NCBI GenBank assembly: GCA_041645215.1
Contig: JBAZQK010000001.1
Span: 54,091 to 118,090 of the forward strand
Length of the DNA: 64,000 nt
Origin: Patescibacteria group bacterium
Lineage (GTDB): Bacteria > Patescibacteriota > Patescibacteriia > Veblenbacterales > UBA10138
Reading direction: 5' to 3'
The notes beneath the pieces were generated by a model. The model worked only from the letters and a program-made list of their open reading frames with translations. It made no database searches and was not told the DNA's origin. Both the position numbers and the translations under genes were made by a program. Positions within the stretch are counted from its first letter, which is position 1; each line of letters starts with the position of its first letter. This document shows, in pieces, positions 10,700-64,000 of the stretch.

Positions 10700-10700
10700 A

Positions 10701-43734: not shown

Positions 43735-44472
43735 ATGTCGCCAGAAAATCAGACTGGCCAATCAAATAGTTGGCAATTGGGGCTAGGCGCAGTGGCGATT
43801 TTGGCGTTAGTCTTGGGGGTTTGGCAAATTCGGAATTCAATTAGCGCGCCGTTTGCTTTTGTTGCTAGTAGTGATGCCAATCAGACCAATCAGCCGCCTA
43901 AAGTCAGTGATGACATTGAGGCTTTAAAAACTAAGGATAACGATACCGACGGCTTATCGGATTATGATGAAATTTATTTGTATCAGACCAGTCCGTATTT
44001 AAAAGATTCTGATTCCGACGGGATTAGCGATAAAACCGAGGTGGAGCGCGGCACTGACCCCAATTGTCCCACCGGTAAAAATTGCGGACCAGTACAATTT
44101 CAACCAACCGCGGCAGTTGATAATAATCCGCTGAATCTTGGTAACGCGCTGGCGCCGACACCGGAACAAATAAGAGCTTATTTAAAACAAAGCGGCGCGA
44201 CCGACAGTTTATTAGCGAGTTATAGCGACCAGCAGTTATTGGATTTGTATAAACAGGTGGCGGGCGAGGTTGCGCCCCAACCCGCATCCGCGCCCCCAAC
44301 CGCCGGTGAAAAAATCAGTTTAAAACCTGAGGAAAAAGCCGCTTTGCAAAAAATGACACCGGCTGAAATAAGGCAGTTTTTAATTAAAAGCGGGGTCAAA
44401 GCCGACGAGCTTAATAAAATAGACGATGTGACCTTAAAAGCGATGGTGGAGCAGATAATAAATGGGCAATAA
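43735..44472 (+). CDS. Membrane-anchored protein with thrombospondin-type-3-like Ca-binding repeats, the first gene of the T4SS-like island.
   Basis: N-terminal TM helix, then DNDTDGLSDYDE and DSDSDGISDKTE, matching the DxDxDGxxDxxE pattern. Confidence 0.4.
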   Translation: MSPENQTGQSNSWQLGLGAVAILALVLGVWQIRNSISAPFAFVASSDANQTNQPPKVSDDIEALKTKDNDTDGLSDYDEIYLYQTSPYLKDSDSDGISDKTEVERGTDPNCPTGKNCGPVQFQPTAAVDNNPLNLGNALAPTPEQIRAYLKQSGATDSLLASYSDQQLLDLYKQVAGEVAPQPASAPPTAGEKISLKPEEKAALQKMTPAEIRQFLIKSGVKADELNKIDDVTLKAMVEQIINGQ

Positions 44473-44579
44473 TTTAAAATGTAAATATCAAAAATTAAAA
44501 TGACAATGCAAAATGTAATAATTTTAAATTTTAATCTGTCATTTTCCATTTTGGTTTTTGAATTTTTAATTTAACCATT

Positions 44580-47500
44580 GTGTTTCCATCAGTCAAAAAA
44601 GGTTCTAAATTAAAGCGTTTGGTTGCCGCCCTGGCAATTGGTTTGGCAATGCTGACTATGGCCACGCCGGCTTTGTTAACTCCGCGGCCGGCGCAGGCGC
44701 AATTTACTGACGTTGCTAACTTAGCAGTTAACACTGGTAAGTGGATATGGGAAAGAATGGTAGAGGTTGGTGACTGGGTTTATAAACATGGCGCGGCCAT
44801 AGCTTTTCGTAACGCCGCCCGGACTTTTACGCAAAAAATCGCTTATGACTCGGCTAATATGTTAGCCTCGGGCGGCCAAGGCCAGACTCCTTTATTTACT
44901 TGGAAAAATTTAGGCAAATCAATTTCTGATGCCGGTGATGAGGCCGCCGGCAGTTTTTTGGACGGCATTGCCTCGGGCGGGGTGTGGGGTAAGTTTAATA
45001 TTTGCGAACCAACCGGACCCAACGCGCCCTTTGCCAAATTAATGATAACTATGCCGGCGTTTAATTTAAATTTAAGCGGTGCTTACAAACCCATTAAGCC
45101 GCGCTGTACCCTGTCTAAATTTAAAGACAACTGGAACAAAGTTTTAAACGACCCCGAGGCTAAAAAAACTTTTCTAAAAGATTTTTCGGTTGTGTTTGAT
45201 CCTAAACAAAGTGAGTTAGGTGTGGGGTTGAATGTGCAAACCAACTTGGTCAAGGAAATTGAACTAAAAAAATATTTAGCAGAAAAAAATGCTACCGCCA
45301 GCGGCGGCATTTTGCCAATCACGCAAACCATTACTCAATTTATTAAAACGCCGGCGCCGCGCATTGAGCGGGCCGCCAATATGACAACCGAGCAGGCCTT
45401 AAAAGAACCACTGGTGTTTACCGGTGATATTCTGGCTGACGCTTTAGGTGTTTTTACCAATACTTTAGCGGCTAAGTTAATGAAGCGGTTAACACAGGGT
45501 GATATTCCCAATCCGGCCGGCATAGGGCCGTCATCATTGTTTGGCGCGGCTTATGGGGCCAGCGGGGTGGAGTATGCGCAAGCCATTAATGCCACGCTTT
45601 TAACCGCCCCTTTGGCCGGCGGCGATGTGTTGGATATGATCAGTGAATTTTCCGGCTGTCCCAGCGATACCCAGTACGCGGCCATAAATAATTGTACAAT
45701 CAACAGTAAATTTGAGCAGGCCTTGCGCAAAGCCGAAGACGGTAACGCGTTAACGGTTAAAGAGGCTATTAACAAAGGCTTAATTAGCGGCGGCTGGGTG
45801 TTTAAGCAAGAAAAACCGCAAAATGTTCGCTTGCCCGATGCTTGGTACTTGTCTGATATTAAAAAGTTGCGTTTGGCCCGTATTTTACCGTTGGGTTGGG
45901 AATTGGCAGTACAAAAAGTGTCTGGCCAGGATGTGAGTTTGAATGATGTGATGAACGGATTCACTGATACCAAAAGTCCGTATTATCATTTGATTGACCC
46001 CAACTGGATATTAAAGGCGCCGCTGTCGCAGTGCCGCCTTAGGGGCCCCGGGCAAATTATACAATCGGCCGGTGGAACGCGTAATGACACTTGCGTTGAT
46101 ACCCAAAGTTGTATCGCCGAAGATGAAGACGGTACTTGTTCGGCCTGGGGCTACTGCACCAAAGATAAAAATATCTGGCGCCTGGGGGGCGATAGTTGTG
46201 AATTTCCCAAAGGCTCGGGCGTCTCACCCTATGCCTCCTGCCAAACCTTTACCGCGCCCGGCGGCAACAGTGTTTCTTATTTGCAGAATTCACTGGCTAA
46301 TTTTGACGACGGAGTTTGCAGCGGGGCGGTCGGCTGCAGGTGGTATTCAACCTTGTTTAATAGTTCGCCGTCGGCTACTTCCGCCAATCGTTATTTGTTA
46401 ACTAAACCGCCTTTATATTTAAAGAATTTAGATAAATTAACTTGCGATGCCGCTAACGAAGGTTGTACTAAATTTTTGCGGCTTACTAATATAAACGCCG
46501 TCGCTTTAGGCAGTGTGGCGGGCGCTAATCCGGCGGAAAAAGTGGTTAATCAGGTGATAAACAGCAGCGACACTTATGATAAATATGCTCAAGTTCAATC
46601 AGTAACTTTAAAATCCGCCCCGGTCCAGTTTAAATGTTATGACACTGACGCCGGCGGTAAGCTTATTACTGGCAATGATTCGCCCGAGTGTAAAAATTAT
46701 TTAAACCTGTGCCGCGCCAATGAGGTTGGTTGCGATCTTTATACGCCCAAGGACGGCTCGCCGGCTATACCGGGAGTATTTGAACCAACTAACACTTGCC
46801 CGGCGCAGTGTGTTGGTTATCAGGTTTACCAACAACAACCGACATTTTTTGAAAAAAATCCAACTCCAGCGCAATATTTTATTCCCGCGACTGCCCAAAA
46901 ATGTTCAGCCACCGCCGTGGGTTGCGAAGAGTTTACCAATGTCAGCCAAAATGAACAGCGTGAATATTATAGCCAATTGCGGCAGTGCATTAAACCGGGG
47001 GCCAAAGCCGCGACTTATTTTACCTGGGTTGGGTCGGAATTAACCGGTTATCAATTAAAACGGTATAGTTTAAAATCATCGTCGGCCTCTTCTTTGGCGG
47101 CGCCGGCCACCACCGATAGTTCCGGCGATTGTCGTCCGAGCGGCTCGGCGCAATATCCCACGGCCGACCCGGATTGCAAACAATTTTATGATGTAGCGGG
47201 TAATGCCCATTATCGTAATTTATCAGTAACCATTACCGCTTCCGACCAGTGTACGCGTTACCGCGCCACCAATGTTAGTAAAACTGATTGTATTGGTGCT
47301 AGTGGTGTCAGCGGCGTTGGCGGCACTGGCGGCGAATGGGACGCGACAGTTGAAAAATGTTTTTACAACGCCATACCCCAAGAAGGCCAGATGTGCAATG
47401 CTTCGCAAGTTGGTTGTCGCGAGTATAAGGGGCCAACCGGTGACAATGTAAAATTGGTTTTCCCCATATCAACTTTTGGCGACAATGACGCCAAGACCAA

Positions 47501-50500
47501 ATGGCCGATTGACGCTTCGCCGACCGGTGATTGGAAATCCGGCACTATATCTAATGATTCGTCAGCCGCTTTTGGCCATTCGTTTGATTCCGGAACCGAC
47601 AGGATTATTTATAAAGATGTCGCCGTTGGCAATATTACGCCTGACCAGCAATATGTGATTTCTTTTTGGGCGAAAAAGAGCGCCTTGGCTGGTAGACCGC
47701 AATCATTTAATAGCGCGCCCTTAAACTCTAGCGCTTTAGTACCCAGTAATGTCAGCGGCGTTAACTTCTGGTGGCAGGGGGTTAAAAAACAATGGAGCGC
47801 CGTGCCTGGCGCCCAGGCGCAGACTTCGCCAATTTCTTTGACCGCCAATCCACCAGTTATTTCTAATTTAATAAGCACTCCGCCGGCCAGCTCGGCCACT
47901 ACCAATTTAACCTGGACAGCTGATACAGCCCCGACTGACCAAATAACCGTTAGCATTGATAACGGGGTCCTGCCACCGACTACTTACCTGGCTGATTCGC
48001 GCTGTGCTAACGCTGGCTCCAAAACTGATACGCCTTGTACTAACAACGACACTTGCCGTGTTCTAACTTCTACTTGTCGGCCGGCTGATTTTAAATGTAA
48101 GGGCGGACCCCAAGACGGGTTAGCTTGTCCGACCGAACAGAATTCCGAGTGTCAGAATACAACCGCCACTTGCGCTAGCGGCAAATGTTCCAACAATGAT
48201 ACTATAAGCTGTACCGGCACTGATGCTACCCCCTGTCGCAATACCACCGCGACTTGTGAATCAACCACCAAGAAGTGTTCCGGTCCTTATAAACAAAATG
48301 AAATATGCAGTGTTAATAATGACTGCGTTGACCAAACCCCGATTTGCCAAATAAATACCCCAATCCCGGTCAAAACCGGAACCGTGGCGGTTAACTTGCC
48401 TACTCGTATTTACAGCGATTATACTTTACCGATCGGCGCTACTTATAATTTATCAGTGGCTTACAGCGGCGGCAGTACGGTAACTAAACAAGTGGCGGTT
48501 AAGGTTAATAATCCATTGGGTCAATTTAGCCTAACCAGTCCGCTTAACGGCGCCACCAACCAATCAATTACGCCGAAAATTGAATGGACCGCTTCGGCGC
48601 GGGCGACTAATTACGCCTTAACAGTGGGCAGCGATTCTTATACTTTAGCCGCCACTGAAGTTTGCAGTGTTGCTTCTTGTTCGTTCACTGTTCCGGTCAA
48701 TCGCAAATTACAATACAACCAAGCTTACGCCGTATCAATTCAGGCGGCCACTGATATTGTTACAAAAAACAGTGATAATAGTATTTCCTTTACCACTGAA
48801 CAAGCCTCGGCCGGCGTTTTTGGTTTTAACGCGCCGGCGGATGACCCGCTGACGACCGGTGGTGAAGACGAAAGATTAAGCATTCCAGTATCTAATATGG
48901 AACAGGGGTCAATTCCGGTAAATATCGCCTGGTCGCCCTCTAGTAACGCGACTTCGTACATTGTTACGGTTTACCAGCAAGAAGACGCTGGTATGAGTTT
49001 AAAATGGAGTACAACCACAACCACCGCTACCGCCGTGGCAGTGGATAAAGGTCTTTTGAAATATGATACTTATTGTAGAATTGAGGTTACAGCCTTAAGC
49101 GGGGCCGCCAGTAAGAGCATTAAACTAGAAGGTTCAGCTGGCAACAATCCTTGTCGCACGCAACAGCCGCCCAAGTCGGCGACCGTGACTGACCCAGCCT
49201 CGGCCGCCGTCATAAAAACCCTTAACCCGATTTTTAGGTGGCAAAGAGGGTGGTGGAATATATCATATAAAATTGAGGTTCAAGTTAATAATGGCGTGAG
49301 TTTTGTTGATTTGTGCGGCCGGGATAATTTGACCACTACGGTATTAACCACTCCGGAATTATCAGCCGGTTGCGGCAACAATTTAACCTTTAAGGATTTA
49401 GGCAGTTATCGCTGGCGGGTAATTTCAAAAAACGCTCATCCTAATGTGGCTTATTCAGTAGTTTCGCCCGGTGCCACTGTGGATTGGAGTTATTTTAGTG
49501 TCAGCACTTTTGAACCGTCTTACGGCGGCAGTGGCGTAACTTATGGCAGTTTGCCCAGCGTAGTCGGCTCCAACAAAGAAAATCCGACACCGCCGGCGCT
49601 TAAGGGATTGCAAGCCGTTTTGAGCGGCAGTTCAGGCCAGTACAGTCCTGCTAAATGTACCGATCCCAATAATCCGCCGGTTATAGTTGGTAAGCAAGAT
49701 TATAAAGTAACGCTTGCTTGGGATGCTTACCAAAATCCGACTGACAAAAAACAGGCGTTAGGGTTTAATTTGTACCGCGGTATTGGCGGTCAGGCGGTTA
49801 CTTATTTGGGCTGCTTAGGCGCAACTGAGGTTTGTAAGCCGAATACTCCGGTTGGTGCTATCACCAATACGACTTACCTTGACAGCAGTAGTAGAATTAA
49901 AGATTTAACCGCCAACCGTTTTGTTTATCAACTTCGCGCTTTTAATACCGGCGGCGAATCCAAAGGCATTTCCGTGGCCGTGGCTACATCTAATCCGCCC
50001 ATTAAGCCGTCTTGTGTGCCGACCGCGGTTACGCCGGATAAAGGTGATATTGTGGTTAAATTAATGGTAGATGGCCAGCCAGCGGCTGGTGTAAGTTCTT
50101 ATGAATTAAATAGTGCTGAACATGCAGATGTGGCTATTTCAACCTCAGGCGATAAAATTTCTGGCCAGGCTCCAGGTGATTATTTATTTAATTATTTAGG
50201 CGGCAGTTTAACTGGTTTTACTAATGCGGAAATTTATTCTCTGGAGGCCAGCCCCGGCGGCAGTATAAATTGTGTGGGCGCGCCGTGCGGCGAGGTGCAG
50301 GGCATTTTGCAAGCCGGACAAACTTTAACTTATACTATTAATTTCGTTACTCCGCCGGCGCCGCCAGCCTCCGTTCCGCCCAACACCAACTTGGATTTTA
50401 GTGTGGCCAGCGGCGGCTTAGCCAGCGATTGGCAGCTTTATACTTTTGGTCCTTATGAATTGCCAGCCCCGGTTGATACCGCTAATGGCGTACGGGTTAG

Positions 50501-53500
50501 AATTAGCGCCGCCGACCGGTTTGTGATTGATAATGTTATCTTACAGCAAGTGGCGGACACGGTTTATGTGAATAAAGGGTCTTGGAAAATGCCTAAGGAC
50601 GCCGCTGGCGGTGATTTGTGCAAACTTAAAGATATCGGTTGCAAGGCTTATACCGACCGGCAAAAAACCACTTATAATTTAACCGGTTTTAGTAAAATCT
50701 GCCGCGCCGAGGCAATTGGCTGTGAGGCCTTGGTTGATACCCGTAACTCTGATTCAGCCAAAGAGATTTCGGCCGCGGTTAGCGGGCAAACAATTTATAC
50801 CCCGGCTGACCAGCTGGTGTACCGGGTTTACGACACCAAAAAGGCCTGCGCCGCCAGTATGCAGGCCTGTCAGCGTGTGGGCGAGCCGGTATTATCAGCC
50901 ACCGGCCAAGCGCAAAGTTGGGGTGATAAATTTGTAAAGCTTAATCCGGACACTTTCAGCGGAAATAATTCGCCGCTTTGTTCAGCCCGGCAAAATAGAT
51001 GTCAGGTATTTAAAACCGGCAGTGTTCCCCATTATTTTAAAGACCCGGGTAATAATGTTTGCGAATATAAGCAGTTAACGCCGGCTGACCAGTATGGCTG
51101 GTATAAACAAGGCACGAGCGAGGCTTGTAACTTGTTAGCTAATGCCAGTTTTGAGAATTTTGAAGCAGCTAATAATATAACTGGCCAGCCAATCACCAAC
51201 AGCGGTACGGCCGGCGATAATATTGAAGATGCGTTTAAATATTGGCAACGAAATAATAGCAGTTCAACTGAACAGGGGGCTTATTTATATGCCCTGCCGT
51301 CGTTTGGTCAGGGTTATTATAATGGTAATACCATTTTGAAAGTCAAGAGCGTGGCCCAGCCTTATTCTGGGGTATGGAGTGAGGTGGTGGAGTTGCCAAC
51401 AGTGGATACGGCTAACCCTCGCTACTTTACAGTGGGGGCGCGTTTATACGTACCGCTTGGCGCTAAAATGGATACGCCTTGGATACTTAGCCAGCACTCT
51501 TATAATGGTGATGAGCCTACACCAGTCAATTGCCCCCAGCGGCTGGTTAATGGTGTTAATGTTAGTTCTTGTCATCATTATGAGTATGAACCAAATGAAC
51601 CAGGGAATGATTATACCGTAACCGAAGCTGATAAAGGTAAATGGGTTTATAAATCCGCTACCATCAAGGCGGACCCGGGAGTAAAGTATGTGTCTTTAGG
51701 AATTATTGTGGCGACTGACAAGGATTGTGCGAATGGCAGATGTAAGTCTGATCAAGAAATTTACGTTGATGGCGTGAGTATAACCGAAGGCACCGCGCCT
51801 TATGCTTATGCTTGCCCCAGCGAAATGTCCAGCTGTAAAGCTTACCGTGATCCGGCCTTAACCAATAGCACATATTATTATTTGGACAATAAAAAATTAG
51901 ACCGTAGTTCTTGCGGCGGTAAGGTGAGTGAAAAAGACGGCTGTTTACTGCTTAATGATTTGTCGCAGTCCGGTGAGTTGCCTTGGAACGCTAACCAAAG
52001 TTATGGCCAAAGCCGTAATCAGGATGGTGTCGCGGTCGCGTCTGTGTCAGGTGTGGGGCGTTGTTCCAATGACCCTACTCAAACCAAAACCTGCACCAAA
52101 TCCAGCGATTGCGGTTCAACCACTGCTTATTGTGATTATAAAGCAACTAATGATAGTGTGGCGCCGGACACCAATCTGATTCTTAAGGTGCGGCGCGATC
52201 GGGTGTGTTCGGAGTGGCTGTCTTGCCAAACCAGCACCACTGTAACCGATCCGCAAACCGGCAAAACTCGCGAAATTTGTTATTCACTGGGCCGTTGCGA
52301 CCAGGTTAGCCAATCCAAAGCCGCCGGGCAGTGCGCTAATTGGCTGGAGCCAGAAGCGCAACAACATCCGTTGGACGAGGCTGATTATGTCGGCCGCAAT
52401 GTTACCTGGGCCGGCCAGGAATATTCCGGTTATTCCATACCGGGCCTGTGTTCGCTGGATATGGTTAGTTCCACACCAGCTTGCGGGGTGGCTATTAGTA
52501 AGGCCAAAGCCTGTCGTATTTATCCCGAGGGTGACGCGCCGTTCCCGGCCAAAGTGGCGCGGTTTGATAGCGATAAGGCCGATACCGCCAAAATTATTAC
52601 CCGTTCCCCCGGCTACAAAGACGCTAATGTGTGTCAGCCGGGTGAGGATTGCGAATGCAGTTACCAGCGCGCTAATTATACTAGTGAAACTAAGTTCTTT
52701 GGTTACAAAGGCACGCCGCCATCGGTTATTAATAAGGTGACTGAAGATTGTGGATCAGGTCAGACTAATCAAGAAATTTTGGAAAAGTGCGCCGAACAGT
52801 CAAAGTTAAAGCAGATTACTTTGGCGCGCGGCTTAAAGGGTTATTGTTTGGAGACTGATTCGTCGCGGCGCATTAATGCCAGCCAAGATCAAGCTTGTTT
52901 AACCTGGTTGCCGATTGATGTGGTTCAGGGCGAGACCTCCATTTTTGACGACAAACCCGAAGCCGGTTTTACTCCCCAGCGCACCGATGGCAACTTGCTT
53001 TATTGTCTGCAGGCCAATAGCAATGCTAATCGCGGTACAAATAAATATGAAGTCATTTCTAATAATATGGGCCGTAAGGTAGAAGTAAATAATTTTTTTG
53101 GCGGCGGTGGAGCATCTGGAGTTGGTGATGCAATGTTTGACATGATGAATATAGTAAAATGTGACGGCGCCGATGTTTGCAAAGAGCGTGGCACTTTCAG
53201 CACCGACTCCGAATATATATGGAGTCATGTTGAACATGGGTTTGGTTTTAGTTTGTCTTTAAGTGATTTTGAAAAACAGTTGGGCGGTATACAAGCGATT
53301 GATGCTATTAAGATTAAAGGTATATATAATGTATACCCCTTTGAACTCAACTTAAGCCGTTCTGTGGAATCGGCTGGAGATTCTTGGTCTGGCGGTTCAG
53401 GTGGAATTGGCATAAGAGTCAAATTTAACCCGGCTGACCCGGATAAATTTCTTGACGTGCAATTGTATCATACCCCGGCGAGTTACGGGTTCTTTAGGTT

Positions 53501-54905
53501 TAAAATAGTGATTTATCCTCGCGAATGGTGTTATAGTTTGGCGCAAGTAGTGGATAAACAACAAACCATCCCCAACAAAGCCCAAACTAATCGGGTGAAT
53601 ACTAGCTCAACTTATTCAATTTCTGGTTTAGGTTATAAATATGACAAAGATTCGCAAGGTAATCCGATTATTCCACCATTTGGCGCGGTTTTTAACAGCC
53701 CGTTGCAACCGGAAAATATTGATAAAATTGTGGCTGTTGTTCAGGAACCGGCGCAACAAAATAACCGATATCAAAATAATTCTGCCAACGCTATCTTTAG
53801 TTGCCGCACCGATCGCAGTGGTTTTGCCTGCGGCCAATGGATGTGCTTGGTTAATGGGCCGGGCGATATTAATGATGCTAGCAAGGTGGGGCAGGCTTGC
53901 AAAGTTACAGCCAACGCAACTTCATATTGTGGTTTAACACCAGCTTGCCCAGCCGGGGCTACTTGCGAAGCAGATTATCAAAAAGACCAGCCTTATATTT
54001 GTACCGGCACTAATCCGGTAATTACTATCCCCGGTAGCGACGGCGTGGCTGTGCTGACTAAACTTTATGAGCCAATTCAGGAGATCTTTGCTAAAGTTTA
54101 TAAGCGTTATGACTGGAGTGGCAAAGACAAAGCTTATCGGGAAATAACGGATAATAATCTTCTTCCGTCGTCACCTGATATTAGTAGTGATCCATCATTA
54201 ACCGACCCGCCAATAATAAGCAGTGTGACGCGCGACGACAAAGGCCGGGTTACGGGCGAAGATGTTAAATATAATTTCAGTATTTCCACTGTTCAGCAAA
54301 GCCGCGCCACTGGTGAAATTAAAGGCGTTAGTCCGTTAGCCGTAACCGCCGCCTTTTACGCTTATAATCCGAACGGCAACCAGATGCCCCTCAGGTTTGT
54401 GGGGGTTGATTGGGATAATAAATTACAGCCTGATAAAAATATTCAGGTACTAGCCTCGTTAAAGAATCACAAGCCGATTTGCCAAGCGCAATATGTCTGC
54501 GCCGGCGACCCCACTTTGTCTTGCGCTGATGTTAACGATACTAAACAGTGCGGCAATAAAGGGCCTTGCCAGCGAAATAAAGATTTTAATTTTGGCGACA
54601 GCCCCGATGCCTGTATAGACGACGAATCCGACCGCGCCGGCTACTTCTTCTACACCAATGTTTATACTTGTTCCGGGTCTGGTCATCCTAATTGGGATTC
54701 TAATAAGGGCGCTTGCGTTTATGAACCGAGCGTGGCCGTGCGCGATAACTGGGGGTGGTGGAGCAACGGCCAATATGACGACGCTGACGCTATTATTGCT
54801 GGCGCCACTGCCAATAATAAAACTTGGTTAGATTATAGTAAAAAGTCTGATACTACTGATACTGCTAATCCGGTCAAGATAATCGTAAAACCCAAGAGCC
54901 AGTAG
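44580..54905 (+). CDS. Giant secreted/surface protein of 3441 aa, Cys-, Thr-, Asn- and Gly-rich, with GTG start and signal peptide.
   Basis: Signal peptide LAIGLAMLTMATPALLTPRPAQAQ. A single uninterrupted ORF of 10.3 kb with more than 150 Cys residues, many in CxxC/CxxxxC spacings. Only short antisense ORFs overlap it. Confidence 0.6.
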   Translation: MFPSVKKGSKLKRLVAALAIGLAMLTMATPALLTPRPAQAQFTDVANLAVNTGKWIWERMVEVGDWVYKHGAAIAFRNAARTFTQKIAYDSANMLASGGQGQTPLFTWKNLGKSISDAGDEAAGSFLDGIASGGVWGKFNICEPTGPNAPFAKLMITMPAFNLNLSGAYKPIKPRCTLSKFKDNWNKVLNDPEAKKTFLKDFSVVFDPKQSELGVGLNVQTNLVKEIELKKYLAEKNATASGGILPITQTITQFIKTPAPRIERAANMTTEQALKEPLVFTGDILADALGVFTNTLAAKLMKRLTQGDIPNPAGIGPSSLFGAAYGASGVEYAQAINATLLTAPLAGGDVLDMISEFSGCPSDTQYAAINNCTINSKFEQALRKAEDGNALTVKEAINKGLISGGWVFKQEKPQNVRLPDAWYLSDIKKLRLARILPLGWELAVQKVSGQDVSLNDVMNGFTDTKSPYYHLIDPNWILKAPLSQCRLRGPGQIIQSAGGTRNDTCVDTQSCIAEDEDGTCSAWGYCTKDKNIWRLGGDSCEFPKGSGVSPYASCQTFTAPGGNSVSYLQNSLANFDDGVCSGAVGCRWYSTLFNSSPSATSANRYLLTKPPLYLKNLDKLTCDAANEGCTKFLRLTNINAVALGSVAGANPAEKVVNQVINSSDTYDKYAQVQSVTLKSAPVQFKCYDTDAGGKLITGNDSPECKNYLNLCRANEVGCDLYTPKDGSPAIPGVFEPTNTCPAQCVGYQVYQQQPTFFEKNPTPAQYFIPATAQKCSATAVGCEEFTNVSQNEQREYYSQLRQCIKPGAKAATYFTWVGSELTGYQLKRYSLKSSSASSLAAPATTDSSGDCRPSGSAQYPTADPDCKQFYDVAGNAHYRNLSVTITASDQCTRYRATNVSKTDCIGASGVSGVGGTGGEWDATVEKCFYNAIPQEGQMCNASQVGCREYKGPTGDNVKLVFPISTFGDNDAKTKWPIDASPTGDWKSGTISNDSSAAFGHSFDSGTDRIIYKDVAVGNITPDQQYVISFWAKKSALAGRPQSFNSAPLNSSALVPSNVSGVNFWWQGVKKQWSAVPGAQAQTSPISLTANPPVISNLISTPPASSATTNLTWTADTAPTDQITVSIDNGVLPPTTYLADSRCANAGSKTDTPCTNNDTCRVLTSTCRPADFKCKGGPQDGLACPTEQNSECQNTTATCASGKCSNNDTISCTGTDATPCRNTTATCESTTKKCSGPYKQNEICSVNNDCVDQTPICQINTPIPVKTGTVAVNLPTRIYSDYTLPIGATYNLSVAYSGGSTVTKQVAVKVNNPLGQFSLTSPLNGATNQSITPKIEWTASARATNYALTVGSDSYTLAATEVCSVASCSFTVPVNRKLQYNQAYAVSIQAATDIVTKNSDNSISFTTEQASAGVFGFNAPADDPLTTGGEDERLSIPVSNMEQGSIPVNIAWSPSSNATSYIVTVYQQEDAGMSLKWSTTTTTATAVAVDKGLLKYDTYCRIEVTALSGAASKSIKLEGSAGNNPCRTQQPPKSATVTDPASAAVIKTLNPIFRWQRGWWNISYKIEVQVNNGVSFVDLCGRDNLTTTVLTTPELSAGCGNNLTFKDLGSYRWRVISKNAHPNVAYSVVSPGATVDWSYFSVSTFEPSYGGSGVTYGSLPSVVGSNKENPTPPALKGLQAVLSGSSGQYSPAKCTDPNNPPVIVGKQDYKVTLAWDAYQNPTDKKQALGFNLYRGIGGQAVTYLGCLGATEVCKPNTPVGAITNTTYLDSSSRIKDLTANRFVYQLRAFNTGGESKGISVAVATSNPPIKPSCVPTAVTPDKGDIVVKLMVDGQPAAGVSSYELNSAEHADVAISTSGDKISGQAPGDYLFNYLGGSLTGFTNAEIYSLEASPGGSINCVGAPCGEVQGILQAGQTLTYTINFVTPPAPPASVPPNTNLDFSVASGGLASDWQLYTFGPYELPAPVDTANGVRVRISAADRFVIDNVILQQVADTVYVNKGSWKMPKDAAGGDLCKLKDIGCKAYTDRQKTTYNLTGFSKICRAEAIGCEALVDTRNSDSAKEISAAVSGQTIYTPADQLVYRVYDTKKACAASMQACQRVGEPVLSATGQAQSWGDKFVKLNPDTFSGNNSPLCSARQNRCQVFKTGSVPHYFKDPGNNVCEYKQLTPADQYGWYKQGTSEACNLLANASFENFEAANNITGQPITNSGTAGDNIEDAFKYWQRNNSSSTEQGAYLYALPSFGQGYYNGNTILKVKSVAQPYSGVWSEVVELPTVDTANPRYFTVGARLYVPLGAKMDTPWILSQHSYNGDEPTPVNCPQRLVNGVNVSSCHHYEYEPNEPGNDYTVTEADKGKWVYKSATIKADPGVKYVSLGIIVATDKDCANGRCKSDQEIYVDGVSITEGTAPYAYACPSEMSSCKAYRDPALTNSTYYYLDNKKLDRSSCGGKVSEKDGCLLLNDLSQSGELPWNANQSYGQSRNQDGVAVASVSGVGRCSNDPTQTKTCTKSSDCGSTTAYCDYKATNDSVAPDTNLILKVRRDRVCSEWLSCQTSTTVTDPQTGKTREICYSLGRCDQVSQSKAAGQCANWLEPEAQQHPLDEADYVGRNVTWAGQEYSGYSIPGLCSLDMVSSTPACGVAISKAKACRIYPEGDAPFPAKVARFDSDKADTAKIITRSPGYKDANVCQPGEDCECSYQRANYTSETKFFGYKGTPPSVINKVTEDCGSGQTNQEILEKCAEQSKLKQITLARGLKGYCLETDSSRRINASQDQACLTWLPIDVVQGETSIFDDKPEAGFTPQRTDGNLLYCLQANSNANRGTNKYEVISNNMGRKVEVNNFFGGGGASGVGDAMFDMMNIVKCDGADVCKERGTFSTDSEYIWSHVEHGFGFSLSLSDFEKQLGGIQAIDAIKIKGIYNVYPFELNLSRSVESAGDSWSGGSGGIGIRVKFNPADPDKFLDVQLYHTPASYGFFRFKIVIYPREWCYSLAQVVDKQQTIPNKAQTNRVNTSSTYSISGLGYKYDKDSQGNPIIPPFGAVFNSPLQPENIDKIVAVVQEPAQQNNRYQNNSANAIFSCRTDRSGFACGQWMCLVNGPGDINDASKVGQACKVTANATSYCGLTPACPAGATCEADYQKDQPYICTGTNPVITIPGSDGVAVLTKLYEPIQEIFAKVYKRYDWSGKDKAYREITDNNLLPSSPDISSDPSLTDPPIISSVTRDDKGRVTGEDVKYNFSISTVQQSRATGEIKGVSPLAVTAAFYAYNPNGNQMPLRFVGVDWDNKLQPDKNIQVLASLKNHKPICQAQYVCAGDPTLSCADVNDTKQCGNKGPCQRNKDFNFGDSPDACIDDESDRAGYFFYTNVYTCSGSGHPNWDSNKGACVYEPSVAVRDNWGWWSNGQYDDADAIIAGATANNKTWLDYSKKSDTTDTANPVKIIVKPKSQ

Positions 54906-55174: not shown

Positions 55175-55335
55175 AATGATAATTAATGTAAATATCAAAA
55201 ATCAAAATGCCTATTATAACTCAAAAGTCAAAAGTAAAAGCTTCGCTTTTAGTAGTTTTGCGATTTTCATGCCCGAGGCAGATCCGCCTTTGGCGGAGAC
55301 TTTTAACTTTTGACTTAAATTTAATATTTACATTT
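55175..55335. repeat. 'gatatttacatttt' family repeat element with a central ccgcctttggcgg hairpin and no cargo.
   Basis: The left end is aatgtaaatatcaaaaatcaaaatg...ctcaaaagtcaaaagtaaaag. The centre is ggcagatccgcctttggcggag. The right end is cttttaacttttgacttaaatttaatatttacatttta, the inverted complement of the left end. Confidence 0.45.
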
Positions 55336-55337
55336 TA

Positions 55338-55480
55338 CCCAGTATAACTACTTCGCTACAACTCGCTTTTAACAAAATTAGTGCAATTAATATATTAATC
55401 AGATTTAAATTATCATTTATTTACTAAACAGTCTGTCAACTCACGCTCGTTAATTTTGTTAGCGAAGTTGATATACTGGG
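55338..55480. mobile_element. MITE-like element of family 'cccagtata' (copy 3, inverted relative to copy 1).
   Basis: cccagtataactacttcgctacaactcgcttttaacaaaattag ... taattttgttagcgaagttgatatactggg. Confidence 0.5.
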
Positions 55481-58471: not shown

Positions 58472-58541
58472 AAAATTTTTTATGATAGCTGTTTTGTGAC
58501 CCCCATTTATTTGTTATCAAATTAGAATCAAGGTTATAATT

Positions 58542-60539
58542 ATGACGCAATTACGGCGGTTAGACGACCTGCGGTATATTGACCCTCAAGAGCTTAATCA
58601 ACCTGCAGTTTTACAGCAGGTGACGGCCTTGACACGGGATTCTTATACTACTTACGAAGCTGATGAGATTGATTCGGCTATTTTGTCACTTGAGCAAGCG
58701 GTGGAATTGGTGGATGACGAGCTGGGTAAAAATTGGAAACTACGCCCTAGTTATGAAAAACTGTTGGCGCTGTTACGTTTTGGGCTTTTAATAGTTCGTT
58801 TTAGCGAGAAAGATGTTCGTGAGGTGTTGACTGGCAATCTGATTTTTTTTCTCAAAGAGGAACCGGATTTGCGGGAGCGTTTCCGCAGCTTGGTCTTTGT
58901 GCAGGGTGACTATAATATGGCTAAGCGCAAGGAACTGCTGAACATTTTGACCGTTAATCGTGAGCAGCTGGCCGGACACACTGTTGAGGAGTGGCTTAAG
59001 GACTACAACAACACAGTAGGTGCTAGTCAGAGAGGTGGGTTAACCCAGGTGAGCTATTTGAACCAAAGTCAGTTGGCAAAATCCTTGCATACCACCGAAG
59101 ATAGGGAAATTTTACTGAACCTTTTGCAAACCTATGATTGGCTTAGAGAGGGTGGCGCTTTGCCAGTTGAACTTATTGTGCCAGAACGTAAGTTAACCGC
59201 GGTCGGCCGTGAGCGTGTGCCGCACGCTGCAACCGTTGTTACTGGTAAACCTGAGGCCGATATTATTGCGCCAGCGTCTAATGCTTCACCAGTGACTGTC
59301 TCTGCTCCAGTTGCCTTAGCAAAGCCGCTCGCCGTCTCGGCTACTCCAGTAGCCACCCCGCCTGTCGAGGTTACCCGATCAACTTTCGTGCCGCCGCTTA
59401 AGCCGGTGCCGCAGGTGATGAAGTCCGCCCAGCCCGCGTTTTTGTTTGATGAGACGGATGAGCGGGAAGCAGACCGCTATCGCGAGCAAATGGCAAATAG
59501 CAAATGGCGAATGGCAGGAAGTCTAGAAGGTAAACTTAGGACTAGAGCCGAGGAAGTGGTTAAGGAGCGTAATTTCAGTTTTAAGGACGAGGTTAGCCAT
59601 AAGCGGTTTGTGCAGTTGTTTGTGTCGTTTTTGAAAGATGTGCGGGATGTTATTGAGACGCGGGAAATGCTGCTTAAAAGTACGGATAGCGGCGGACTTG
59701 GTTTAACCAGCGACAAAACCGAGAAAGTTATGGAGATTTTAGAGCAAGCGAAGAAGGAGTTTGAATCAAGAATTAAGAATCAAGAATTAAGAACAGAAGA
59801 GACAAAGCCGTTAGATTCTTCAGCCGATAGCCCTCGGTTTCAGAATGACAAAGTGAAGCAGGTTGATATAACATCTAAACCCAAAACCGAGTTGGATAAG
59901 ATGATTGAGGCCGAGGCAGTAGCACTGGAACACTTAAACACCCCAAAGAACGTCACTGGAGTGACGTCTACGGGGCAGGCTGGAACACTGGAACAAAAGA
60001 GTGAGATTCTTCACTCCGTTCAGAATGACAAGACGAGGCAGAATCTAGAAATTAATCCAGAAAAATTAGAAGTTACCAGACAACAGATTTTGCAGGAAAT
60101 CGTGGGGAAAATTGAAGCTGAAAAACCTCAAGCAGTAGGTTCGATAGAGTTGCGCACTACTGGGCAAGAGGGAGCAACGCGTCCGCGGTTAATGGATATT
60201 AAAGCCCCGCCCCGTGTGTTAGGGCCGGTGGAGGAGTTAAGAACCTTATCAATGGTTGATTTTCGTCGCTTAGCTAAAGAGCCGGTTGAGGTCTTAAATA
60301 AAATTAGTAAAAAAATTGATATTATTGGTGAAACTTCAGTGGGCAAGCGGGTGGAGGCGGTGCGGGCTTGGCAAAATTCGCCGGTATATCAGTTGTATTT
60401 AAAAATTGGCCGCCAAAGCATTGATAGTGGCAAATCAGTGGTTGATATAATTGCGGAATATACCAGCCAAGGGGAAGTTGTTTTGAGCGAGGGTGAGTTC
60501 AACGCCATTGTTGATTTTAATGAACGGATCAGATTCTAG
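58542..60539 (+). CDS. Hypothetical T4SS-associated protein of 665 aa, hydrophilic and coiled-coil-rich.
   Basis: No motif I recognise. It contains an in-frame GAATTAA-type repeat tract at 59760-59800. Confidence 0.35.
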   Translation: MTQLRRLDDLRYIDPQELNQPAVLQQVTALTRDSYTTYEADEIDSAILSLEQAVELVDDELGKNWKLRPSYEKLLALLRFGLLIVRFSEKDVREVLTGNLIFFLKEEPDLRERFRSLVFVQGDYNMAKRKELLNILTVNREQLAGHTVEEWLKDYNNTVGASQRGGLTQVSYLNQSQLAKSLHTTEDREILLNLLQTYDWLREGGALPVELIVPERKLTAVGRERVPHAATVVTGKPEADIIAPASNASPVTVSAPVALAKPLAVSATPVATPPVEVTRSTFVPPLKPVPQVMKSAQPAFLFDETDEREADRYREQMANSKWRMAGSLEGKLRTRAEEVVKERNFSFKDEVSHKRFVQLFVSFLKDVRDVIETREMLLKSTDSGGLGLTSDKTEKVMEILEQAKKEFESRIKNQELRTEETKPLDSSADSPRFQNDKVKQVDITSKPKTELDKMIEAEAVALEHLNTPKNVTGVTSTGQAGTLEQKSEILHSVQNDKTRQNLEINPEKLEVTRQQILQEIVGKIEAEKPQAVGSIELRTTGQEGATRPRLMDIKAPPRVLGPVEELRTLSMVDFRRLAKEPVEVLNKISKKIDIIGETSVGKRVEAVRAWQNSPVYQLYLKIGRQSIDSGKSVVDIIAEYTSQGEVVLSEGEFNAIVDFNERIRF

Positions 60540-60599
60540 AATTATGAATCAAGAATTAGGAATTAAGAATAATACAGCAAAAATAAAAACATTTACAGT

Positions 60600-61001
60600 A
60601 TGGAAACTCAAAACTCAAATCGCAAAAGTCAAAACCACAACGTAAAAGCTAAAAGTGATTTAAAACACAGATGTTATTATTATTCCATTAATATCATTAA
60701 GTTTTTAAAAACCCTGCCTAATGATAAAGTATACTGGAGCATATCAGACCAGCTATTAAGGAGTGCCACTAGTATTGGAGCCAATGTAATTGAGGCAAAA
60801 TCAGCCAGTTCCAGAAGAGATTTCATTAAATTTTATGACATTGCCCTAAAGAGCGCCAATGAAACCAAATATTGGTTAGCCTTAATGAGAGACGCTCTTG
60901 GCATAACCGCAATCCAGGTTAATCCTTTGTTGATTGAAGTTGAAGAACTATCTAATATTTTAGCCGCCAGCTTGTTAACCTTAAAGAACAAAAGACAATG
61001 A
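60600..61001 (+). CDS. Four-helix-bundle protein (23S rRNA intervening-sequence protein/Avd-like family), divergent copy.
   Basis: LLRSATSIGANVIEAKSASSRRDFIKFYDIALKSANETKYWLALMRD matches the family core (compare the copy at 62693). It is flanked by the inverted repeat caaaaccacaacgtaaaag / cttttgcgttgtggttttg. Confidence 0.65.
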   Translation: METQNSNRKSQNHNVKAKSDLKHRCYYYSINIIKFLKTLPNDKVYWSISDQLLRSATSIGANVIEAKSASSRRDFIKFYDIALKSANETKYWLALMRDALGITAIQVNPLLIEVEELSNILAASLLTLKNKRQ

Positions 61002-61017
61002 TTTTTACTTTTGCGTT

Positions 61018-61512
61018 GTGGTTTTGAGATTTGACTTTTTAGTTTTAACTTTTCCTACTGTGCAACAATTCGTCGTGCCCCAATTTATAGACGTTGAGGA
61101 TAAAATTTTTGGCCCCATAACCACGCGGCAATTCATTATTTTGTTAGTGGGGGCGTTTATTCTTTTTATTGAGTATAAAATATTAGATTTTACCCTGTTT
61201 GTTCTACTGGGGGTAATAACATTGGTAGTTTTTGGAATTTTGGCCTTTTTTAAGATAAATGGTATGCCGGTTCACTATTTTTTGTTAAACTTTACTCAAA
61301 GCTTCAAACGCCCCAAGGTGCGCATTTGGCAAAAGGATATTAATGAGCAAGAGCTTAAACTAAACCTGCATCGCCCCGTGATGGTTACTAAGGCCGTAAC
61401 GGCGCTAAAGCCGCCTTTGGAAAAATCTAAACTCACCCAACTTGGTATGTTGGTTGATACGGGAGGAATGTATAGAGGAGAGGAAGAAGAGATTAGTAAG
61501 AGGAGTAATTAA
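61018..61512 (+). CDS. PrgI/TcpE-like small membrane protein (VirB3 analogue of Gram-positive-type T4SS).
   Basis: KIFGPITTRQFIILLVGAFILFI followed by a second TM helix, the PrgI-family pattern. The true start may be an internal GTG. Confidence 0.5.
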   Translation: MVLRFDFLVLTFPTVQQFVVPQFIDVEDKIFGPITTRQFIILLVGAFILFIEYKILDFTLFVLLGVITLVVFGILAFFKINGMPVHYFLLNFTQSFKRPKVRIWQKDINEQELKLNLHRPVMVTKAVTALKPPLEKSKLTQLGMLVDTGGMYRGEEEEISKRSN

Positions 61513-61532
61513 TGTAAAATGCAAAAATCAAA

Positions 61533-61904
61533 ATGGAAAATGACAAATTAAAATTTAAAAATGAATTCAAGAAAAGATTATATTCTTTTGTACTAAGCTT
61601 AATTAAGTTTATTGAATCTCTATCTAAAGGGGCTGTCAGCGATGTAATGGGTAAGCAATTATTACGCAGTGGCACTAGTATATTGGCCAATTATATAGAG
61701 GCCAATTCAGCCAGTTCCAAAAAAGATTTTATTAACTTTTTTACTCATTCTTTAAAATCAGCTAATGAATCAAAAGTTTGGCTAACACTCTTAAGAGATA
61801 CTAATAAAGGCAGTAAATCAGAGGTTGATTATCTTTTAAATGAATTGATAGAAATAGCTAATATTTTAGCTTCAAGTATATTAACTCTTAAAAACAAAAA
61901 ATAA
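61533..61904 (+). CDS. Four-helix-bundle protein (IVS/Avd-like family), divergent copy.
   Basis: LLRSGTSILANYIEANSASSKKDFINFFTHSLKSANESKVWLTLLRD. It is flanked by inverted aatgtaaa(t)atcaaaaatcaaaat repeats. Confidence 0.65.
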   Translation: MENDKLKFKNEFKKRLYSFVLSLIKFIESLSKGAVSDVMGKQLLRSGTSILANYIEANSASSKKDFINFFTHSLKSANESKVWLTLLRDTNKGSKSEVDYLLNELIEIANILASSILTLKNKK

Positions 61905-61954
61905 TTTTGCATTTTTAATTGTAATTTTGATTTTTGATATTTACATTTTGAATT

Positions 61955-62647
61955 TTGACTATGCCCAAACGCGAATTAGCCGGTAAAAAAAAGTCGCTCC
62001 CGTCAACCACCAGGTACTTGGATATTGGCGAGATTAGGGATGATGCCGTAGTTTTAAGAGATGGCACCTTGCGGGCCGTGTTGATGTGTTCGTCAATTAA
62101 TTTTTCGCTGAAAAGCGATGACGAGCAGAAGGCAATCGTGCAGGGCTATGTAAGTTTTCTTAATTCTTTGGAATTTCCTTTACAAATTGTGGCCCAATCG
62201 CGCAAATTAAATATTGACGGGTATTTGGCCAATTTAAACAACATCGCCAAACAGCAAACTAATGAATTGTTACGGGTGCAGATTAATGATTACACGGCCT
62301 ATATTAAAGAACTAATATCACTGGGCGATATTATGACTAAGCGTTTTTATGTGGTGGTGCCGTATAATCCGGGTAGTGACAAACGCCGCAGCTTTTGGGA
62401 GAGATTTGTTTCCATTTTTTCCGCCGCTAAAGCCGTTAGATTGTCGCGTGATAAATTTAATAAATATTTGGAATCTTTGGAAAGACGGGCTGGTCAGGTA
62501 GAAAGCGGCCTGGCCTCAATGGGTTTAACCGCGGTCCGACTTGATACCCAAAGTTTAATTGAGCTTTATTATACAAGTTACAATCCGGAACTTAGAGAAA
62601 CGGAAAAGTTGGCCGGAATGGATGAGATACAAGTGGAAGCAGATTAA
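61955..62647 (+). CDS. N-terminal roughly 230 aa of a VirB4/TcpF/PrgJ-like T4SS ATPase, separated from the rest of the gene.
   Basis: RDGTLRAVLMCSSINFSLKSDDEQKAIVQGYVSFLNSLEFPLQIVAQSRKLNIDGYLANL ... TKRFYVVVPYNPG aligns with the N-terminal region of Gram-positive VirB4-like ATPases (the TcpF/PrgJ pattern). The ORF stops at 62647 and homology continues in the ORF starting at 63147. Confidence 0.65.
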   Translation: MTMPKRELAGKKKSLPSTTRYLDIGEIRDDAVVLRDGTLRAVLMCSSINFSLKSDDEQKAIVQGYVSFLNSLEFPLQIVAQSRKLNIDGYLANLNNIAKQQTNELLRVQINDYTAYIKELISLGDIMTKRFYVVVPYNPGSDKRRSFWERFVSIFSAAKAVRLSRDKFNKYLESLERRAGQVESGLASMGLTAVRLDTQSLIELYYTSYNPELRETEKLAGMDEIQVEAD

Positions 62648-62692
62648 AATGACAAAATAGAATTACGAATACCGAATCATGAATAGCGAATT

Positions 62693-63079
62693 ATGAATAA
62701 AACCAGCGATACCATAAAGTCTTTTACTGATTTAAATAGTTGGCGCGAAGCCCACCAACTAGTTTTGCTGGTTTATCAGGCGACTGGCAGTTTTCCTAAA
62801 GAGGAATTATTTGGTTTAACCAATCAAATTAGGCGCGCCGCAGTTTCAATTACTTCCAATATAGCTGAAGGATTTAGTCGTCAAAGTTATTCTGAAAAAG
62901 TGCATTTCTATTCTATCGCTCAAGGTTCTTTAACCGAAGTTCAAAATCAGTTGCTGATTGCTCGCGATATTGGTTATATAAAGATAAATTCTTTTACGGT
63001 TTTAGCTGACCAATCAATCGCTGCTCATAAGACGCTTAGCGGATTAATAAAAAAATCTAAAACTATTCGTGATTCGTGA
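62693..63079 (+). CDS. Four-helix-bundle protein (23S rRNA IVS protein/Avd-like), canonical copy.
   Basis: WREAHQLVLLVYQATGSFPKEELFGLTNQIRRAAVSITSNIAEGFSRQSYSEKVHFYSIAQGSLTEVQNQLLIARDIGYI is a textbook member of the family. Confidence 0.85.
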   Translation: MNKTSDTIKSFTDLNSWREAHQLVLLVYQATGSFPKEELFGLTNQIRRAAVSITSNIAEGFSRQSYSEKVHFYSIAQGSLTEVQNQLLIARDIGYIKINSFTVLADQSIAAHKTLSGLIKKSKTIRDS

Positions 63080-63146
63080 TTCGCTATTCGGAGTATTATA
63101 ATTTTACATTCTAACTTTTGACTTACCTTTGATATTTACATTTTAA

Positions 63147-64000
63147 ATTTTCTATCATGGCTATTTCTCCGGAAAAATTTGAAAGTGATTTACAAAAATC
63201 AGCCACTACCCGGGCGGCGCCCGCGGCAGCGGGAGAGGTGTCGGCTCGCCAGCTATTAGAGGCGGAGCGCATATTGCGCCAAGGTACGGTAAAAATAAGG
63301 GAATTAATCGCGCCGGCTTCATTCAAAGTTACGCCTGATCATGTTGAGTTAAACAATTTTTTTGTTAGAACTTTATTTGTTTTGACATATCCGCGTTATA
63401 TTTCTTTAGGCTGGTTTGCGCCTATCGTGAACTTGAATTTTGCGCTTGACATCGGAATGTACTTTTATTTGGTGCCCAGCGAAATTATTCTAAAACAATT
63501 GCGCAATAAAGTGGGCGCTCTGGAAGCGCAAATAATGGCCGACCACGAAAAAGGCGCGCCCCGCGACCCGGTGCGGGAGACCGCCCTGCAAGACATTGAA
63601 CAGTTGCGCGACAGCCTTACCCAGGGTTCGGAGAAATTTTTTCAGTTTGCTTTATATGTAACTTTATACGCCCCTAGCCTTAAAGAACTGGATAAGATTA
63701 CCGAGGAAGTGGAAAGTTTGTTCGGCTCTAAATTAATATATTCCCGTCGCGCTTTATGGCAGACGGAGCAGGGTTTTAATTCCACCTTGCCACTCGGTAA
63801 TGATGAATTGCAGATTTACTTTAATATGAATTCCTCGCCGATTGCTTCGTCTTTCCCGTTTACCTCGTCCGAACTTACCAGCGACAACGGAATTATGTAT
63901 GGCATTAACCGCCATAATAACTCGTTAATTTTATTTGATCGCTTTAGTTTGCAGAACGCCAACATGGTGGTATTTGCCACCTCGGGCGCTGGTAAAAGTT
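63147..64000 (+). CDS. VirB4/TcpF-like T4SS ATPase, central part up to the Walker A motif. It is open at the window end and absent from the ORF track because no stop is reached.
   Basis: The frame opens at ATG 63147 and runs to the window edge. LNNFFVRTLFVLTYPRYISLGWFAPIV and ...FPFTSSELTSDNGIMYGINRHNNSLILFDRFSLQNANMVVFATSGAGKS match the VirB4 signature preceding and including Walker A. Confidence 0.8.

Follow-up and report, generated by a model that had tools for sequence, protein, structure and literature searches.

Does a giant cysteine-rich protein encoded beside type IV secretion system (T4SS) genes in a Patescibacteria chromosome work together with that secretion system? The question is raised by a stretch of 64,000 nucleotides from the Patescibacteria group bacterium assembly GCA_041645215.1 (contig JBAZQK010000001.1; hereafter the window). 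A first-pass annotation, made from the letters alone, had described its last third as a T4SS-like island led by an enormous secreted protein, here called the giant. The region is a chromosomal T4SS locus of a Kerfeldbacteria-like member of the Patescibacteria, or candidate phyla radiation (CPR). We found that members of the giant family lie upstream of a VirB6-like gene in most of the species-level loci compared, commonly behind a gene for a calcium-binding membrane protein with TSP3 repeats. From this linkage and from the domain content of the family, we slightly favour a reading in which the giant is a Sec-exported, disulfide-stabilised, carbohydrate-binding host-contact module that would work with the T4SS.

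The giant is encoded by a single uninterrupted open reading frame (ORF) of 10.3 kb with a signal-peptide-like N terminus ending in AQAQ, as the first-pass annotation had proposed. Its sole hydrophobic segment (aa 13-35) is followed by PRPAQA/Q, and we found in it no LPXTG or [LIV]PX[TSA]G sortase motif, no C-terminal hydrophobic segment and no C-terminal transmembrane (TM) helix. The protein contains 116 Cys (3.37%) and not the more than 150 that had been reported; most other proteins of the window contain 0-1.4%, and the remaining Cys-rich ones are exported proteins with pilin domains. In an independent assembly (L090, ENA ERZ27249422), the whole available stretch of 9891 nt is 100% identical and the gene is called as 3441 aa, which rules out an assembly artefact or pseudogene. 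The giant of a further strain (L092) has 98.9% identity over 993 aa and differs by one in-frame indel of 3 aa. Frameshifts in better assemblies had been a concern, but intact ORFs of the family (2200-3260 aa, 75-175 Cys) are also found in dozens of other genomes.

Synteny was compared across 80 loci from species-representative genomes, anchored on the VirB6-like domain with 10-kb flanks, in which ORFs were annotated by BLASTP and jackhmmer against the window proteins; the linkage count covers those 57 species-level loci in which the sequence 5' of the extended VirB6/TrbL-like gene (VirB6L) reaches at least 9 kb. A giant-family ORF lies upstream of VirB6L on the same strand in 47 of these 57 loci, separated from it in 22 of the 47 by less than 700 bp and sometimes overlapping it, and in one further locus the giant lies downstream. 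The linkage to T4SS genes is persistent and holds down to 28-35% amino-acid identity. Among loci with enough flanking sequence, a homologue of the TSP3 protein stands directly 5' of the giant in 11 of 14, and a truncated ORF does so in 8 more. The recurrent order is TSP3 protein, giant, VirB6-like protein, in some cases a protein of ~400 aa, the 665-aa family, PrgI, TrsD, VirB4 and a 205-aa family, sometimes with DsbA or a pilin/3D protein. The family is large: a profile of the N-terminal 1050 residues, searched exhaustively, recovered 2030 cluster representatives (1285 at E<=1e-30), mostly of 2400-3300 aa. Such an exhaustive HMM search was needed, since word-indexed searches with the giant's N terminus or with a 12-sequence profile returned 4 and 9 relatives only. 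Named members are called 'hypothetical protein' or 'PA14 domain-containing protein' and come from Kerfeldbacteria or Patescibacteria.

Conservation across the loci is concentrated in aa 1-1050, 1900-2200 and 2400-2850 of the giant, and is weaker in 3150-3400; aa 1050-1900 and most of 2210-2400 have no similarity to other loci. The core contains many Cys that are invariant among 16 full-length members, and a recurring motif, C-x6-C-x2-[Y/F]. Carbohydrate-binding modules (CBMs) are a common feature of the family, with Pfam detecting CBM_4_9 (PF02018) in 14 of the 16 full-length members, Dockerin_1 in 3 and PA14 in 1. Among the carbohydrate-binding modules matched by the family profile are the CBM4 of Thermotoga laminarinase 16A (1gui_A, E=5.7e-4) and those of a GH26 enzyme and of a hyaluronate lyase. 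In the stretch between aa 1045 and 1905, the window's giant has 861 residues, against 21-43 aa in 15 other full-length members. According to the alignment, this insert, a run of Cys knots (aa 1142-1256) with Ig/FN3-like repeats after it, is nested in a loop of a CBM-like jelly roll. A weak Big_5 match within it (E=0.0017) was the only Pfam result from 9 tiles of the giant at E<=1. A Kerfeldbacteria orthologue carries the same insert with 51-58% identity, compared with 75-87% across most of the conserved core, and the insert therefore evolves faster.

The genes that follow include the VirB6-like, PrgI/VirB3 and VirB4 genes of a Gram-positive-type (MPF_FATA-like) T4SS core, as the first-pass annotation had recognised (Table 1). 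ORF listing and translation bore out its coordinates, and its Ca-binding-repeat membrane protein does combine an N-terminal TM helix with a bacterial TSP3 repeat. It was right that the 665-aa, PrgI and VirB4 genes occur in that order but not that they follow one another directly, four genes having been left out (three of the 23S_rRNA_IVP family, hereafter IVP, and one TrsD-like). The order 3' of the 665-aa gene is IVP, PrgI, IVP, TrsD-like, IVP, VirB4.

Table 1. Coordinates of the giant, its parts and the neighbouring T4SS and IVP genes (window positions).
Feature	Position	Strand	Basis
Sigma-70-like promoter candidate TTGACT-17-TATAAT with TG, 5' of TSP3 and giant genes	43645..43673	+	Consensus scan, 11/12 positions; pattern match only
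TSP3-repeat membrane protein, 245 aa	43735..44472	+	PF18884 E=6.8e-7; TM helix aa 11-33
Giant exported Cys-rich protein, 3441 aa, GTG start	44580..54905	+	ORF listing and translation
Signal peptide or signal anchor of giant, aa 1-41 (...PRPAQA/Q)	44580..44702	+	Sequence and hydropathy; putative cleavage site
Small, mostly helical domain of giant, aa ~345-490, with conserved Cys360 and Cys372	45612..46049	+	AlphaFold2 pLDDT 88-96
CBM_4_9-like jelly-roll module of giant, first half, aa 950-1045	47427..47714	+	Aligns to contiguous module in 15 homologues
Lineage-specific insert of giant, aa 1046-1904: Cys-knot run, then Ig/FN3-like repeats	47715..50291	+	Full-length alignment
Split CBM_4_9-like module of giant, second half, aa 1905-1995 (...FVIDNVILQQV)	50292..50564	+	Full-length alignment A8
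Conserved Cys-rich core of giant, aa ~1996-2200 and ~2400-2850, with variable aa ~2200-2400 between	50565..53129	+	Conservation profile, motif list, invariant Cys columns in A8
Terminator-like hairpin 30 nt 3' of the giant's stop codon	54935..54955	+	Consensus scan; pattern match only
Extended VirB6/TrbL-like protein (VirB6L), 991 aa	55496..58471	+	Homologues, TM scan
665-aa soluble Cys-free protein with conserved C-terminal domain of ~110 aa	58542..60539	+	Present in 57 loci
IVP cassette 1: 23S_rRNA_IVP gene 60600-61001 (133 aa) inside 60-nt inverted repeats	60595..61061	+	PF05635 E=2.5e-22
PrgI/VirB3-like protein, ORF of 164 aa	61018..61512	+	PF12666, 43.2 bits against cut-off 27
IVP cassette 2: gene 61533-61904 (123 aa) with 45-nt inverted repeats	61511..61947	+	PF05635 E=1.4e-18
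TrsD-like protein, 230 aa, free-standing VirB4 N-terminal domain	61955..62647	+	NCBIfam matches
IVP gene 3, 128 aa, between TrsD and VirB4	62693..63079	+	PF05635 E=1.7e-35
VirB4 ATPase, N-terminal 281 aa to Walker A motif, continues past window end	63157..64000	+	PF03135 (CagE/TrbE/VirB) E=1.3e-5

VirB6L combines a polytopic, conserved membrane domain of ~360 aa, with about 7-8 hydrophobic segments, and a variable, charged, hydrophilic tail of ~630 aa, in line with the tail of roughly 600 aa described at first; it contains 0 Cys. Neither it nor the giant nor the 665-aa protein has a Pfam match of its own, but VirB6L has 624 homologues and is clearly related (E<1e-75) to proteins annotated PF04610/PF19590. 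Among the homologues listed, those with a named source come from Kerfeld-, Magasanik-, Komeili- or Falkowbacteria or 'Patescibacteria group', except for one record assigned to Planctomycetota; Uhr-, Veblen- and Buchananbacteria are also represented among the genome loci, many of which bear the deposit name 'uncultured Gammaproteobacteria'. The VirB6L tail is probably cytoplasmic, because it is Cys-free and lysine/arginine-rich at its start. The soluble, Cys-free 665-aa protein is probably cytoplasmic too, and we speculate that it and the tail might replace a coupling protein. This protein belongs to no matched family, as had been noted, and its family lies between VirB6L and PrgI in 57 loci. 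Its family profile gave one weak GpsB-like stretch (E=0.018), to which we attach no interpretation; beyond that stretch, neither it nor VirB6L had an NCBIfam or PDB sequence match. For PrgI, alignment with the near-identical contigs L002 and L003 suggests that the true start is probably a GTG near 61060, which would give 150 aa.

Downstream genes could be followed on a contig (L001) that is 99.1% identical to window positions 60688-64000 and extends 9 kb past the window end. Its VirB4 orthologue (624 aa) scores 354 bits on the NCBIfam model conju_CD1110, above the cut-off of 325. VirB4 is effectively split in these strains, with TrsD (L001 1274-1960) covering the N-terminal model positions and the 624-aa protein (L001 2470-4344) covering positions 182-730 of 752. 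The 230-aa TrsD-like protein of the window matched NF041427 (TrsD/TraD, E=4.5e-6) and positions 110-233 of NF045975 (VirB4_plasma, E=4.6e-9), both under the curated cut-offs; it has a precomputed assignment to PF26593 (TraC-like) and is conserved in 57 loci, and an exact sequence look-up of the protein read from its TTG start gave no record. After VirB4, L001 encodes a 205-aa bitopic protein with one N-terminal TM helix (4722-5339), conserved at this place in 47 loci, whose family profile aligned over 114 residues to the VirB8-like PrgL (7aed_A) with a weak E=1.4. There follow two Cys-rich proteins (27 and 16 Cys), each with a T4SS_pilin hairpin and the second with a 3D domain in addition; the PF18895 pilin scores on L001 (24.8 bits at 6383-7921 and 26.3 bits from 11176 onward) lie just under the cut-off of 26.6. 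A DsbA-like thiol oxidoreductase is encoded at 10483-11139. The search for further T4SS genes downstream, which the first-pass annotation had suggested, yielded the complete VirB4, a possible counterpart of VirB8, two proteins with pilin domains and DsbA. No VirD4 or relaxase was detected by Pfam among the ~53 larger ORFs of the window and the 9 kb downstream, a scan that left out a few smaller window ORFs.

DsbA genes lie in or near 10 loci, after the 205-aa gene in six (L040, L042, L053, L056, L077 and L078) and before VirB6L in two (L025 and L062), a recurrence consistent with disulfide-rich exported proteins being encoded at T4SS loci. A second group of exported Cys-rich proteins is encoded in the window 40 kb from the T4SS cluster, at 2444-3040, 5191-5871 and 3686-5206, all on the minus strand, with 2.0%, 7.1% and 3.6% Cys, respectively. 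Two of them have T4SS_pilin domains with PF18895 scores above the cut-off (38.2 bits for 2444-3040 and 44.4 bits for 3686-5206), so pilin-like genes are dispersed.

The T4SS core itself is already known, and our finding extends a published system and does not describe a new kind of machine. Quinonero-Coronel et al. (2025) described a Patescibacteria-specific VirB4 clade related to MPF_FATA, accompanied by TrsD, PrgI/VirB3, VirB6 and VirB2-like pilins, and usually without a nearby relaxase or coupling protein; their phylum-wide survey detected no adhesins (PMC12102498). Wang et al. (2023) found a T4SS to be essential for the epibiotic growth of the Saccharibacterium Southlakia epibionticum, the one genetically tractable Patescibacterium (PMC10633639). 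The present locus shares with these systems a chromosomal location, VirB4 with a free-standing TrsD, PrgI/VirB3, VirB6 and VirB2-like pilin-domain genes, the lack of a relaxase or coupling protein beside virB4, and nearby peptidoglycan-active and thiol-oxidoreductase genes. It differs in the giant family (about 2000 clusters) and its TSP3 partner upstream of VirB6 in ABY1-class genomes, and the window operon is also interleaved with IVP cassettes. A term search found no giant, large or surface proteins mentioned in PMC12102498, and in PMC10633639 neither cysteine nor surface proteins, with 'large' used only in unrelated senses. The extended VirB6 proteins of Rickettsiales (RvhB6) and of the F plasmid (TraG) also join a polytopic N-terminal domain to a large hydrophilic domain (PMC12857230), but the ~630-aa tail of VirB6L is dissimilar in sequence and Cys-free. 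In the literature searched, we found no account of how large the giant family is, of its TSP3 partner, of its persistent place upstream of VirB6 in ABY1-class genomes or of the insert in a CBM loop.

If the giant does work with the T4SS, the following mechanism can be proposed. The giant would be exported by Sec via its N-terminal signal and oxidised outside the cell into a rigid, disulfide-stapled structure, as suggested by its 116 Cys, most of them at positions invariant in the family, and by the DsbA genes in or near several loci. With no sortase motif and no C-terminal anchor, it would be held at the surface non-covalently, with the Ca-binding TSP3 membrane protein, the T4SS pilin-like proteins or both as candidate holders. 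It could then contact the glycans of the host cell envelope through its CBM_4_9-type modules, and the fast-evolving Cys-knot/Ig-like insert, displayed from a CBM loop, may tune host specificity.

A precedent for such an arrangement comes from the Enterococcus plasmid pCF10, in which the surface genes PrgB/PrgA/PrgC precede prgH (VirB6), prgI (VirB3), prgJ (VirB4), prgK (hydrolase) and prgL (VirB8-like). The gene order is analogous, with surface-contact genes first, and by analogy the presumed role would be the binding of a partner's envelope polymers; the TSP3-giant pair might do for this T4SS what PrgB-type adhesins (PrgB is cited in PMC12102498) do in enterococcal conjugation, though the proteins are unrelated. 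By contrast with PrgB, the giant shows no sequence or detectable fold similarity to it, lacks an LPXTG anchor, is about 3 times its size, is disulfide-rich and belongs to a family with CBM-type domains rather than polymer-adhesin domains, and the system here is not conjugative as far as is visible.

We also consider, more tentatively, a specific form of this proposal, which is possible but on present evidence rather doubtful: the TSP3-giant pair may be the missing extracellular part of the ABY1-class T4SS, a disulfide-stapled stalk or tip docked on the VirB6/pilin apparatus, whose CBMs would bind host glycans and whose cassette-like inserts, carried on CBM loops, would set the host range. If this docked structure were real, the about 2000 clusters would constitute a new class of T4SS accessory protein and a genomic marker for CPR hosts. 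More generally, the family offers a concrete candidate for a host-contact element in ABY1 lineages (Kerfeld-, Uhr-, Magasanik-, Falkow- and Veblenbacteria), and the giant's variable inserts could help to predict the host specificity of uncultured organisms.

Several observations weigh against a host-contact module working with the T4SS. We found no match between the giant and a known adhesin, polymer-adhesin domain or T4SS subunit, either by sequence (Pfam, NCBIfam, PDB) or by structure, and the words 'component' and 'adhesin' in the first-pass annotation go further than this; such a label derives from linkage, export signals, Cys content and the CBM modules of homologues. Pfam detects no CBM in the window's giant, because the 861-aa insert splits the CBM-like module and the second module of the homologues is missing. 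AlphaFold2 gave a mean predicted local distance difference test score (pLDDT) of 39.6 for aa 1-1050 with 12 sequences and of 60 for aa 1-700 with 39 sequences; in the latter model, low-confidence long helices span aa 46-306 and only aa 345-490 are predicted with confidence. No part of aa 1-700, including this confident domain, had a fold match in PDB or BFVD, and the poor prediction leaves the conserved N-terminal module uninterpreted. As for linkage, 10 of the 57 loci have no giant in the 10 kb 5' of VirB6L, where ATP synthase and GroEL genes are found instead, and in some loci MetRS (methionyl-tRNA synthetase) and other genes stand between the two. KsgA stays beside the TSP3-giant pair in at least six loci, which indicates that gene order in the clade is generally conservative and that linkage alone overstates functional coupling. 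In the window, a 590-bp spacer, the terminator-like hairpin at 54935-54955 and promoter-like sites separate the giant from VirB6L, and the gene pair of TSP3 protein and giant has the appearance of a separate transcription unit.

Many of these points fit an alternative that we regard as unlikely, though serious, in which the giant and TSP3 protein form a general envelope or attachment structure, S-layer-like or a free-standing adhesin, that is independent of the T4SS and owes its position to the conservative gene order of the ABY1 class. The promoter-like and terminator-like sites that bracket the pair, its distance from VirB6L in the window, the co-conservation of KsgA upstream in several lineages, and the loci with interposed housekeeping genes or with no nearby giant would all be expected of such a structure. 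Large Cys-rich extracellular proteins with no tie to a T4SS are, moreover, a general CPR trait. Those of Peribacteria (Anantharaman et al. 2016, PMC4736985) are likened to the giant by description only: they too are Cys-rich, unannotated proteins of 1-3 thousand amino acids with signal peptides and a proposed role in attachment, but they belong to another lineage, contain about 7% Cys and have no T4SS link. Against T4SS independence, the giant and VirB6L genes are neighbours on one strand in about 20 distant species, where they overlap or are 0-150 bp apart; the linkage survives to ~28% identity while genes further upstream change; and the neighbourhood's other Cys-rich exported proteins are T4SS pilin-domain proteins.

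It is improbable that the giant is a secreted enzyme or toxin that attacks polysaccharides or cell walls and opens the host's or its own envelope for the T4SS, which would make it a giant version, in function, of VirB1/PrgK. Modules of the CBM_4_9, dockerin and PA14 types are characteristic of glycoside hydrolases, and the CBMs matched by the family profile include those of enzymes. In Patescibacteria, the surroundings of virB4 often lack a VirB1 homologue (PMC12102498), and a preprint links giant genes to cell-wall degradation in other ultra-small predatory bacteria (bioRxiv 10.1101/2023.11.21.568195). However, we detected no catalytic domain in the window's giant or in 15 homologues, the separate downstream 3D-domain protein is a likelier hydrolase, and the conserved parts of the giant are Cys-rich repeats, not enzyme-like folds. 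Diversity-generating retroelements (DGRs) are common in CPR genomes, and their accessory protein Avd is a homologue of the IVP proteins (a weak bAvd match, E=4e-4), but the idea that the giant is a DGR target is effectively refuted: Pfam found no reverse transcriptase among the ~53 larger ORFs of the window and L001 (a few smaller window ORFs were outside the scan), no template/variable repeat pair involves the giant, two strains at 100% and ~99% identity show no A-specific mutation cluster, and the IVP genes occupy stem-closed cassettes dispersed among unrelated genes.

These IVP genes, which encode Avd-like four-helix bundles, are interleaved with the T4SS genes of the window, and others lie on L001 (4337-4519, 5419-5790 and 10230-10439) and L089 (4384-4740). 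In cassettes 1 and 2, AT-rich inverted repeats of 45-60 nt enclose the gene, so that the transcript would fold into a long stem closing the whole ORF, like rRNA intervening sequences; the RNA fold of cassette 1 has z=-5.1. Strains that are ~99% identical differ in their cassettes: at the junction of the 665-aa and PrgI genes, L002 and L003 have another cassette, which is truncated and has inverted repeats of its own, and cassette 2 is missing from both. The IVP genes look like mobile cassettes, possibly processed by RNase III, inside the operon. In the window strain, IVP gene 3 sits exactly between the two halves of VirB4, and in L089 an IVP gene occupies the spacer between the TSP3 and giant genes. 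Spacers that have no IVP gene, among them the gap between the giant and VirB6L, also contain AT-rich repeats (42466-42560, 44455-44571, 55162-55226, 55301-55377 and 63109-63168) that are related to the cassette arms and may be cassette remnants or empty sites. Two other small repeats recur in the region, a 42-nt palindromic element (43533-43574 and 59812-59853, 88% match) and heptamers of the GAATNAA type (42249, 43408, 59762, 60531 and 62652). Both are found between genes and in frame within the 665-aa ORF, which suggests a small element, similar to miniature inverted-repeat transposable elements or repetitive extragenic palindromes, that is tolerated within a coding region.

The wider setting does not bear out the term 'island'. 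The flanks are housekeeping genes that recur in relatives, and GC content is like that of the rest of the window. Upstream lie genes for polynucleotide phosphorylase, LspA, ComM, an M23/LysM peptidase, a 1288-aa leucyl-tRNA synthetase (LeuRS), Sua5, a major facilitator superfamily (MFS) transporter and KsgA. The order LeuRS-Sua5-MFS-KsgA-TSP3-giant recurs in a 43%-identical relative (L006), in a Candidatus Kerfeldbacteria metagenome-assembled genome (L089) and in L090-L092 from two other samples. The closest integrase gene (24991-25890) and tRNA gene (24535-24606) lie about 19 kb off, on the far side of housekeeping genes. On the conserved flanks, the unremarkable GC content and the distance of integrase and tRNA, we reject a mobile island or integrative and conjugative element. 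An Rfam scan of the window returned tRNAs only.

Some further features of the window lie upstream of the locus. The tyrosine recombinase at 24991-25890 (minus strand) adjoins the tRNA, a tRNA-Arg, and a PilT/PilB-type T2SSE ATPase (15753-16790) and a Fic/DOC-domain protein (18958-19377) are encoded on the minus strand; these are unrelated to the giant and the T4SS. The LeuRS (36233-40099), in L006 and L090 as in the window, has an alpha/beta-hydrolase domain (aa ~242-404) inserted in its catalytic domain; a weak NUDIX-like stretch follows its editing domain, and a NUDIX fragment was also called in L006.

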